45,659 nucleotides of DNA from Eledone cirrhosa (GCA_964016885.1 CAXHJY010001628.1:1-45659); one strand, 5' to 3'; positions 18,749 to 35,499 are shown, counted from the stretch's first letter. Notes: a model not told the origin generated them from the letters alone. Translations and numbers: made by a program.

Positions 18749-19368
18749 TATATATATATACACACATATATATATATATATATATATATACATATATATA
18801 CACATACAAACATACATACAAACATACATATACACATACACATATAAAAATATATATATACACACATACATACACGCATGTATATATATATATATATACA
18901 TATATACATACACATACATATATATATATATATACATATATATATATATATATATATACACACATACACACACACACACACATATACACATACACACACA
19001 CACATACATACATACATATATACATGTATATATATATATATATATATATATATACATACACATACATATACACACACATATATATATACACGCACACACA
19101 TATACACATATATATACACACACACACACACATACACATGCACATGTATAAATTTTAAATATATATATATATATATATATGTAGATAAATCTACCAAGAG
19201 TTTACGGTAGTGTCCAATCCGTATGAAGAACTCAATGTATTCCGGATATCATGGAAAGAAGAGATGTAATGAAAAATCACTTTCGGTGAAAGATAAACGG
19301 TATACAGAGTCAAGATAAAATATTAAACAAATAATGAATAAACAATTCCTTATATTAAACAAAAAAAG

Positions 19369-19522
19369 TTCATTATTTAACGATCGTTTCTAGGATATAT
19401 ATGTGTTAGAATTGGCATGCATATTCAACAGATCTATGTACAAAATTATACAAAATTATACAAAATATCAAGATTAAATATACATACCAACACATATATA
19501 CGCCGTCTTCAGAAATAATGAA
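19369..19522 (-). ncRNA. type I hammerhead ribozyme with greatly extended stem II
   Basis: UUCAUUAUUU-CUGAAGA-(~115 nt paired region)-GAA-ACGAUCGU-U/AAAUAAUGAA. 10-bp stem I, palindromic stem III, GUU triplet. Confidence 0.82.
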
Positions 19523-31750: not shown

Positions 31751-34700
31751 TAATCTCGGAGCCCCTCCTGAAGGACGCAATTAACTTTGCCAGGAATTCT
31801 ACCACCATTACCGATGCTGAGCAAGTTGTTATCCTCCACGCTCGTAAGACCTTTCTATACCACGATGGATCTTACTGGATCAACAAGAAATCTCAGACCC
31901 CATTTGACGTTAGCATGGGTGCGAGTGACTCGGCTGAAATTAGCGACCTTGTGGGCCTGTACATCCTACATAACCTGAAGAACCTCTTTACCGGCCTAAC
32001 GGGAGGTTTATACCGAGATGACGGCCTCTTCGCCCTGCATAAGGTTAACCCCAGAACCACCGATGGGTTTCGGAAAAACTTAAGCTCTTTCTTCTCTAAT
32101 CTAGGATTTAGTATAACTATAGATTCTAATTTGACTAGGGCCAACTTCTTAGATGTCACTCTCGACCTAGATACTTCCCTCTATTACCCGTACCACAAAC
32201 CTAACGAGTCCCTTAAATATATTAATGTTAATTCAAACCACCCCCAAAACATCACTGATAACCTAGTAAAAAGCGTCTCTATTAGAATATCTGGCCTCTC
32301 CGCCAACAAAGATATTTTTAATGCATCTGCCTCCTACTACAATGACGCCCTCGCCCGTAGCGAATTTAAAGATAAGATAACTTACCTAGAAACCACAGCA
32401 AGATTGCAGAGGAGGAATAGACATAGGCAGATTAGCTGGTACAACCCTCCCTTCAATAGAGAGGTATCTACTCCGATAGCTAGGATTTTCTTCACTTTAC
32501 TGAAATTACACTTCCCCATACAACATAGGTACTACACCATCTTTAATAAGAACACTATAAGACTGTCTTACTCCACCACACCTAACCTAGCTAGGAATAT
32601 AGCCAACCACAATTCTAAATTAAATAAGCCAACCACCTCCGAAACCAATCCCCGGACTGGGGCTCTATGTAATTGCCTAAATAAGGAAGCATGCCCACTT
32701 GAAAACAAATGCCTCACAAATGACATCGTATACAAATGCGATGTCATCTCAGGCACCGAGGATTGCAAAAAAACTTACATCGGCATGACCTCCAACAACT
32801 TTAAGACCCGTTGGTATGCCCATACCCACTCCTTCAGTAGACCGGATAAATCAAATCAGACAACACTCGCCTCCTACGTTTGGGACCTCAAAAGGAACTC
32901 CACCCCCTTCACGCTTAAATGGAAAATACTCCAGAAAGCGTGCTCTTACAACGGAGGACACAAGGGCTGCGACCTTTGCATTTCAGAGAGCTACGAAATT
33001 TTATTCGCCAAGGGCCCGCTACTGAACAAACTCTCTGAACACTGCCCGAACTGCATGCACAAGAACTTTGCAACTTTCAAACACTTTAAGCCAGTGTTAA
33101 AGCCCGATGGCTAAAAACGACCTCCCCCTATTGGCCCCTATACCTCCTCCCCACCCTACCCCCACCCCTCCTCAACCTGAAATACGGCCACTATGGTTAT
33201 GTGAGTACCTCTTTCGTATCTACATTTTCTGCCTGTAGAGGTGTCTTTATGTGCCTGCGTATATGCGTATATTTATTGAGTACCTATTTATTTGTATGTG
33301 TATAAATTTGTTTGTATGTGTGTATATGTATGTGTATGTGTATATATAAGTATATGTTTGTGTGTATATGTGTTTTATGTGTGTATATTTATGTATGTAT
33401 ATGTATGTATATATGTGTATATATATATATATATATGTGTATATATATGTATGTGTATGTATGTATGTATGTATGTATGTATGTGTATGTATGTATGTTT
33501 ATGTATGTATGTGTATGTATATATGTATATGTATATATATATATATATATATATATGTGTATGTATATATGTATATGTATATATATATATATATATATAT
33601 ATATATATGTGTATATGTATATGTATATATATATATATATGTATATATATATATATATATATGTATGTATGTGTGTATGTGTGTGTGTGTGTGTATATAT
33701 ATATATATATATATATATATATATAGTGTGGGCAGGTGTGTGTATATGTGTATATATATGTGTGTGTATGTGTATGTATATGTATATATGTGTGTGTATG
33801 TGTATATATATATATATATATATATATGTATGTATATATATGTATGTATATATGTATATGTGTGTATATATATATATATATATATATGTGTATATGTATA
33901 TATATTTGTGTGTGTGTGTGTGTATGTGTGTATGCGCGTGTGTGTATATATATATATATATATATATATGTGTATATATGTGTGTATATATGCGTTATAT
34001 GTCTGTATATATATGTGTATATTTATGTATAGGTCTGTATGTATGTGTATATTTGTATATATATGGATATATATATATATATATGTATATATATATATAT
34101 ATATATATATATATTTATATATATATATATATATATATAAATATTTATACATGTGCATGTGTATGTGTGTGTGTGTGTGTGTATGTATATGTGTATATGT
34201 GTGTGCGTGTATATATATATGTGTGTATATGTATGTGTATGTATGTATATATATATATATGTATATATATATATATATGTATACATGTATATATGTATGT
34301 ATGTATGTGTGTGTGTGTATGTGTATATATATATGTGTGTGTGTATGTGTGTGTATGTGTGTATATATATATATATATATATATATATATATGTATATAT
34401 ATATATATATATGTGTATGTATATATGTATATATATATATACATGCGTGTATGTATGTGTGTATATATCTATTTTTATATGTGTATGTGTATATGTATGT
34501 TTGTATGTATGTTTGTATGTGTATATATATGTATATATGTATATATATATATATATATGTATATATATATGTATATATATATATATATGTATATATATAT
34601 ATATATGTATATGGATATATATGTATATATGTATACATATATATATATATATATATATATATGTATATATATATATATATATGTATATATATATATATAT

Positions 34701-35499
34701 ATATGTATATATATATATATATGTATATATATATATATATGTATATATATATATATGTATATATATATATATGTATATATATATATATGTATATATATAT
34801 ATATGTATATATGTATATATATGTATATATATGTATATATGTATATATATGTATATATGTATATATATGTATATATGTATATATATATATGTATATATGT
34901 ATATATATATATATGTGTGTGTATATATATATATGTATATATGTATATATATATATATATGTGTGTATATATATATATATATATATATATATATATATAT
35001 ATATATATATATATATATATATACATGTGTGTGTATATATATATATATATATATGTGTGTATATATATATATATGTGTGTGTGTGTGTGTGTATGTATGT
35101 ATATGTGTGTATGTTTTTATATATATGTATATATTTATGTATATATATATATATATATGTATATGTGTGTGTGTATATGTATGTATATATATATATATAT
35201 GGGTGTGTGTGTATATGTGTGTATGTATTTGTGTATATATGTTTGAATGTGTGTGTATATGTGTATGTGTGTGTATATATATATATATATATATCTATAT
35301 ATATATATGTATATATATGTATGTGTATATGTGTATATGTATATATATATATATATATATGTATATATGTGTGTGTATATGTATGTGTATGTGTGTATAT
35401 ATATATGAATATATGTATGAATGGTGTCTCTCTCTCTCTCTCTCTCTCTCTCTCTCTCTCTCTCTCTCTCTCTCTCTCTCTCTCTCTCTCTCTCTCTCT
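31751..35499 (+). mobile_element. Penelope-like element PLE-B (5'-truncated) with microsatellite-mosaic 3' region; true 3' end not identified
   Basis: RT/GIY-YIG ORF, C-rich UTR at 33115-33290, then a GT/TA mosaic whose inverted copy lies upstream in pieces. Confidence 0.75.
31753..33114 (+). CDS. Penelope-like RT (partial) + GIY-YIG endonuclease
   Basis: ISEPLL...[37 protein letters not shown], CNCx5CPLxxx[18 protein letters not shown]...E...LN...CMH. The N-terminal 189 aa of the listed ORF are microsatellite or filler. Confidence 0.9.

Follow-up and report, generated by a model that had tools for sequence, protein, structure and literature searches.

Two Penelope-like families of Eledone cirrhosa carry kilobases of TA/TG microsatellite mosaic in their 3' tails

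Does a Penelope-like element (PLE) that inserts into (TA)n repeats also ferry such repeats to new places, and does that cargo shape the microsatellite content of the host genome? The question is raised by a complete 45.7 kb contig of the 3.0 Gb Eledone cirrhosa genome (CAXHJY010001628.1, 45,659 nt, here called the window), in which two PLE families, PLE-A and PLE-B, lie nested together with their repeats. A first-pass annotation of the window had proposed a self-reinforcing system; i.e. PLE retrotransposition spreads microsatellite target sites that are then used by PLEs, RTEs and SINEs, and genomic microsatellite content rises as a result.

Two nested PLE pairs in the window

The main PLE-A copy (19181-26010, minus strand) is 5'-truncated by about 185 nt and terminates at the longer of two alternative 3' ends. 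Its ORF (23599-26010, minus strand), open for 803 aa as compared to 813 aa in full copies, specifies a reverse transcriptase (RT) together with a C-terminal GIY-YIG-type endonuclease (EN) with Hydra motifs. The 3' UTR contains a TA/TG mosaic (20160-22450, minus strand) with TG on the sense strand; it lies after the stop codon (23599) and before a hammerhead-shaped motif (19372-19519, minus strand), a candidate ribozyme with a long stem II and a palindromic stem III that has no Rfam match at the gathering score. Joined head-to-head to this copy is an inverted plus-strand arm (26009-31214) that starts inside the ORF and stops at the short 3' end, which falls 134 nt before the long end; it repeats 24517-19315 with 5,190 identities and 3 mismatches in 5,193 aligned bases (blastn 99.46% over 5,218 nt) and includes its own hammerhead motif (31012-31159, plus strand). 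The mosaic of about 2.3 kb that had been described as copied almost base for base in the inverted arm (28080-30365, plus strand) is indeed near-identical there, with 2,273 identities and 1 mismatch in 2,274 and 29 gap positions.

Each family displays two 3' ends, 134 nt apart in PLE-A (window 19181-19315) and about 60 nt apart in PLE-B, and in both families both ends lie downstream of the predicted hammerhead cut. The PLE-A UTR on the 5' side of the mosaic (window 22450-23600) is made up of several diverged repeats of the ORF-end region.

PLE-B is represented by a 5'-truncated ORF (31737-33114, plus strand) with a weak GIY-YIG match and Hydra motifs, followed by a 3' UTR (33115-35499, plus strand) composed of a unique part, a TA/TG mosaic (33285-35427) and a (TC)n tract (35428-35499). 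The mosaic reported for PLE-B is thus present, though it is a different one from that of PLE-A. The (TC)n at 35499 was considered as the PLE-B end and rejected; the inverted arm and other copies continue to a terminal segment. The place expected for the remaining PLE-B UTR and end is occupied by a TA-based array of about 9 kb (35500-44459, unstranded), whose first unit consists of the junction between (TC)n and (TA)n in the PLE-B tail and whose origin would be either a very large cargo-seeded expansion or an assembly artefact.

The inverted PLE-B arm, all on the minus strand, is split by PLE-A and two RTE-type LINEs and then by two smaller insertions, and reaches 12645. Its first piece (31215-31736) and second piece (18748-19180) flank the PLE-A pair; an RTE-type LINE fragment (17084-18747, minus strand) separates the second from the third (16806-17083), and a second such fragment (14901-16805, minus strand) separates the third from the fourth (14678-14900), which holds a (TC)n tract. 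The 3' fragment of a second RTE-type family (14323-14677, minus strand) precedes piece five (14056-14322), which carries anchor m8 in the order seen in other copies, and a short unclassified mobile fragment with an inverted arm of its own (13868-14055, unstranded) precedes piece six (13213-13867), the mosaic end with anchor m10. The arm closes with a unique terminal segment (12645-13212) that holds a putative hammerhead core (12728-12776) and is the PLE-B 3' end; it is linked to the PLE-B ORF in 19/20 other 10 kb stretches. Where at least three insertions in the PLE-B arm had been claimed there are therefore five. The 13868-14055 fragment is not a part of PLE-B, since other copies lack it at that position, and relatives of it lie at other positions in two other PLE-B mosaics. 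The LINEs are of a type that we take to be RTE; an RTE-type ORF elsewhere in the window (1689-3896) has an RT domain and then a PHD-finger match.

Two identical 466 nt units lie in tandem at window 467-1431, with relatives in other TA tracts, one of them inside a PLE-B mosaic (L119). A SINE at 9178-9514 has a tRNA-like head, recognised by eye, and its tail resembles the second RTE-type family's 3' UTR (91% alike). Next to LINE ends (L261-L290; window 7612-9178 and 11193-12643) the TA arrays frequently repeat a single interrupted unit, a pattern that amplification of the target site, during insertion or later, would give.

In both PLE proteins the RT motifs are followed by the GIY-YIG-type EN core at the C-terminus, the core being identified by eye; a GIY-YIG Pfam match was found for PLE-B only and is weak and below cut-off. 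Both proteins share the DKG to DKT change, an N-terminal RWR motif that is a conservative variant of RWK, a CxCX5C linker, and CxxC and CxH in the EN, with no CCHH; partial tandems (pLTR), the inverted 5'-truncated arm and a tail at one end are present as well. Hammerhead cores with stems I/III are recognizable in both families as putative ribozymes, the long stem II of PLE-A being predicted to fold (z -5.8) and the terminal core of PLE-B being canonical, and an Rfam scan of two loci at the gathering score gave no match. An Rfam scan by E-value of 12000-36000 was discarded, the 150 of its 297 matches that were listed being chance miRNA look-alikes of repeats. As judged from these features, PLE-A and PLE-B, whose 3' UTRs are unusually long, are Penelope-like elements with Hydra-clade motifs, an assignment made by motifs, with 118 protein homologs that do not bear PLE names; the Naiad clade, which has an N-terminal EN and no hammerhead, is ruled out by the C-terminal EN. 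At about 7.0 kb and about 5.5-6 kb, respectively, PLE-A and PLE-B are longer than the under 3 kb by which Hydra elements are described.

The mosaic as cargo of the elements

The near identity of the two window arms might suggest that the mosaic arose at this locus and was then duplicated at the DNA level. Other copies refute this, and the probability left to it is vanishingly small: at least 10 large contigs carry the same mosaic, and its copies there have ends specific to the element and 5' breakpoints that vary. Among the 30 best matches to the PLE-A 3' end, one of which is the window itself, all 29 others contain the mosaic, across the whole 1.5 kb fetched in 26 and partly in 3; 21 of these loci end in TA repeats and 8 enter PLE-A's own 5' leader as tandem units, so that the long end lies in TA repeats at 21/21 non-tandem loci, as it does for the 24/24 PLE-B long ends found among 30 loci. 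At 13 PLE-A loci compared over 10 kb the alignment, at 95-98% identity, passes through the mosaic without a break; it is continuous with ORF sequence at 9 loci and with upstream UTR at the remaining 4, and the 5' breakpoints differ. Full PLE-A units measure 7.03-7.08 kb, and the 813 aa ORF is intact in three of the six examined.

Motif counts extend this to the whole genome, with the qualification that exact motifs miss diverged copies. A 31-mer from the PLE-A mosaic interior occurs 146 times (control 0), and every mosaic-motif locus examined (30/30) enters the PLE-A end. The motif just 5' of the PLE-A mosaic, which counts arms, occurs 1,298 times (reversed-pattern control 0), and 30/30 arms taken in genome order show about 1 kb of mosaic per 1.5 kb fetched, in subfamilies that are 94-99% alike. 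For PLE-B, an internal 24-mer occurs 220 times and the terminal motif 1,000 times, truncated copies included (reversed-pattern control 0), and the shared anchors follow in order in 19/20 stretches. The two families have thus taken tails with about 2 kb of TA/TG repeats to roughly two thousand sites. That the mosaic belongs to the element and moves with it, as the first-pass annotation had assumed, is thus confirmed at unrelated loci for both families. Retrotransposition fits the 3' ends, which are fixed and lie in (TA)n, as well as the variable 5' ends and the spread over many large contigs. Reverse transcription would start at the 3' end, and everything upstream, the mosaic included, would consequently be copied from RNA; the structure of the elements likewise suggests that the mosaic is present in PLE RNA.

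The origin of the mosaic is indicated by its length in different lineages. A relative with about 85% protein identity carries no more than (TA)9 in the UTR, the PLE-A mosaic is about 1.3-1.4 kb in older subfamilies with the same anchors and 2.3 kb in that of the window, uninterrupted PLE-B mosaics range from 1.5 to 3.4 kb, and at one locus (L127) a (TC)n tract is (TC)10 in one arm and (TC)30 in the other. Growth in place is likely; slippage and internal duplication would have lengthened a short TA seed in master lineages. A mosaic captured from the host is a possible alternative origin.

The sense strand is the TG strand in both families, with 7,514 TG versus 607 CA in PLE-A arms, the PLE-B orientation being read from its sequence. 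A-to-I editing as the writer of this TG is unsupported: in the PLE-A mosaic the rare A>G changes (54) are balanced by about as many G>A (51), which is what slippage would produce. In the unique UTR, A>G is in excess in PLE-A (45/244 versus T>C 22/298) and not in PLE-B (4/162 versus T>C 12/196).

Retention of the mosaic through all sampled subfamilies could also be explained by selection, which might favor it in one of several roles: for TA-seeking elements it would be a decoy or safe harbour, in tandems a spacer or part of a promoter, and it could act in RNA structure. It is kept, with shared anchors, in 30/30 arms across subfamilies, TG marks the sense strand in two families that are unrelated, and in tandem units the mosaic lies directly upstream of the next ORF. 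However, mosaic length and content vary freely, as the range of the uninterrupted PLE-B copies illustrates, and the close relative and other families transpose without one. Selection is considered an improbable explanation.

Insertions into the mosaics and their weight in the genome

The strongest form of the proposal is that PLE tails are a main source both of the genome's TA tracts and of the pads on which PLEs, RTEs and SINEs land, and that they drive microsatellite content up. It is favored by the five insertions in the PLE-B arm of the window and by the contents of other PLE-B mosaics. Foreign segments of at least 70 nt are found in the mosaic of 13/20 PLE-B stretches, and 16 insertions fall in about 46 kb of mosaic, whereas ORF and terminal sequence, about 30 kb in total, has 0 (p 3e-4), a count that omits one locus (L118) as too tangled and two possibly non-independent pieces. 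Both arms of one pair (L133/L134, C1:147.78-147.79 Mb) have a 216 nt PLE-A 3' end within a TA run of their PLE-A mosaic, and, being common to both, this end was likely already in the template; at L118 a PLE-A-family end lies inside a PLE-B mosaic. Tracts also expand after insertion, as in the unequal (TC)n of L127, and PLE ORFs are found in 8/40 random stretches. In PLE-B copies on two different contigs (L114 and L115), the last TA tract of the mosaic is in each case the site of short insertions that are related but not equal, and these are either independent hits or an inherited nest.

What the mosaic offers other elements once it has been copied to a site would be an ordinary (TA)n target. 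Of the predicted users, PLEs, in one case PLE-A itself, and RTEs have inserted; no SINE head was found among the insertions in sampled PLE-B mosaics, and no SINE lies inside any PLE arm of the window. No RTE motif occurs in the PLE-A mosaics (529 and 319 tracts), and such near-empty mosaics fit the youth of PLE-A, whose arms diverge by 0.27% (7/10 pairs at 0-1 mismatch) versus 1.1% for PLE-B. It had also been claimed that nearly every element boundary of the window sits in (TA)n. By a strict rule 22/27 hand-listed boundaries touch (TA)3 or more, and 4 of the 5 others lie in AT-rich sequence or TA/CA mosaic, but this count alone is weak because 46% of the window is mosaic; the preference is better seen genome-wide, where 33/59 RTE 3' tails adjoin (TA)3 or more as compared to 8.6% of random positions.

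The genome-wide contribution of the tails is a different matter. From 40 evenly placed 10 kb stretches the genome is estimated to be about 10% mosaic (bootstrap 7-13%) with about 2,500 (TA)6+ tracts per Mb, or about 7.5 million in all. The share of PLE-A plus PLE-B, computed from 1,298 and 1,000 arms respectively, is about 1.5% of mosaic bases (estimated 1-2%) and 0.7% of (TA)6+ tracts. One of the 40 tiles holds an older PLE-A mosaic amounting to about 3% of the sampled mosaic bases. Other PLE families met at random have a short mosaic or none before the hammerhead; 11 ORF ends from about seven families showed no shared multi-kb mosaic at that position, one family having two short runs. The same random 400 kb (L191-L230) has 22 hammerhead-like motifs, two of them in a triplet repeat, versus 0 in shuffled sequence, i.e. 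about 50 per Mb from many families.

The 3' motifs of the two RTE-type families occur 31,908 times, and by anchors in their flanks 0/59 RTE ends and 0/21 PLE-A ends lie inside PLE-A or PLE-B mosaics; for the RTE ends the upper 95% bound is 5% before allowing for imperfect sensitivity, and a single contig's first 0.6 Mb supplied 30 of the 59. The anchor test recognised 55/60 known PLE-B flanks by at least 2 anchors and 0/280 random tiles, a true PLE-A copy excepted, and its sensitivity falls in nests, where short interrupted window pieces gave 0-1 anchors. Looking from the PLE-B mosaics outward, 5 RTE ends in 578 tracts compare with 1.4-2.5 expected, 2-3.6x the genome mean per tract (p 0.10 or 0.013, depending on baseline), and local flanks have 1 in 496 tracts (Fisher p 0.23). 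Preferential RTE use of PLE-borne tracts over others thus amounts to at most a modest excess.

Only 10-30 TA tracts are added per copy to the 7.5 million, so that the target feedback is real but small, and tails estimated to hold 1-2% of genome TA repeats are likely passive cargo and not the engine of repeat content. The loop by which PLEs were to raise microsatellite content and supply RTE and SINE pads is real in kind and small in its measured numbers, and it is unlikely that PLE tails are a main source. The reading that we prefer, at a probability of roughly 0.7, is that PLE-A and PLE-B are recently active elements whose long 3' UTR holds a heritable TA/TG mosaic, that this mosaic travels to every new site, likely as passive cargo, and that it then collects insertions as any (TA)n target would. 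The excess of RTE ends in PLE-B mosaics, seen although PLE-B is young, counts against this reading, and decayed older PLE tails that go unrecognised could hold more of the genome's mosaic.

A bolder version, itself rather doubtful, is that PLEs ferry their own targets as a mobile harbour in which insertions are re-mobilised, as at L133/L134, so that whole nests, made up of PLEs, RTEs and ribozyme elements, would spread together, and the tails of many past families, now decayed beyond recognition, would be a major source of this genome's strand-polarised TA/TG mosaics. On present numbers, the PLE-A and PLE-B tails leave the genome's approximately 10% mosaic unexplained. About 2,000 near-identical mosaics of known age nonetheless constitute a natural experiment for microsatellite slippage and TA-target choice. 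Such tails also break automated repeat consensus building and turn "unique" microsatellite markers into multi-locus ones.

Relation to other retroelement-borne microsatellites

The Hydra clade is the closest known system. It is described as having a (TA)n target, DKT, RWK, CxCX5C, CxxC and CxH motifs, a hammerhead and a length generally under 3 kb; its 25 listed elements span 1,080-3,045 nt, Hydra-1_Obim being 2,507 nt (Craig et al. 2021, PMC8557442). PLE-A and PLE-B share with it a single ORF of RT and C-terminal GIY-YIG-type EN, the DKT, CxCX5C, CxxC and CxH motifs and (TA)n insertion, together with tandem pLTR arrangement, an inverted 5' arm and a tail at one end; they show RWR as a conservative variant of its RWK, and a putative hammerhead in the 3' part. 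They differ in units of about 7.0 and about 5.5-6 kb and in the 1.3-3 kb mosaic inside the UTR. The one-sided tail of PLE-A is 134 nt, whereas that of Naiads is 30-40 nt (Craig et al. 2021, PMC8557442). The active Penelope families listed for Octopus vulgaris are given in the available text with no mention of such tails (Bonar et al. 2026, PMC13282606).

Microsatellites within mobile retroelements have precedents. In penaeid shrimp, Penelope copies more than 98% alike moved internal simple sequence repeats along, which then lengthened (Yuan et al. 2021, PMC7878876), and as in PLE-A and PLE-B the microsatellites move inside recently transposed copies. The shrimp case was demonstrated on an example and tied to genome-wide repeat expansion, whereas the share of PLE-A and PLE-B is measured and small, and the accessible portion of the shrimp study does not connect the cargo with secondary insertions or with what the element itself targets (PMC7878876). 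In snakes the 3' tails of CR1-L3 and Rex LINEs seed microsatellites (Pasquesi et al. 2018, PMC6050309); delivery to new loci by retroelements is common to both systems, but the available account of snakes describes a short terminal motif with a large genomic expansion, as opposed to a long internal mosaic that equals the target motif and has a small share. Thus, unlike an element that explains much of the abundance of its motif, the PLE tails explain 1.5% of bases and 0.7% of tracts. Microsatellite families of Lepidoptera are tied to RTE retrotransposons (Tay et al. 2010, PMC2887409) and, in the text at hand, share their flanks since they are part of the retroelement, as in PLE-A and PLE-B, the element class being different.

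In a literature search that covered mainly openly accessible papers, none was found to describe a PLE loaded with kilobases of the motif into which it inserts. Penelope-borne microsatellites in shrimp and (TA)n targeting by Hydra elements are already known; to these PLE-A and PLE-B add a clear case of a retroelement carrying kilobases of its clade's own target motif, with one self-insertion inherited by both arms.
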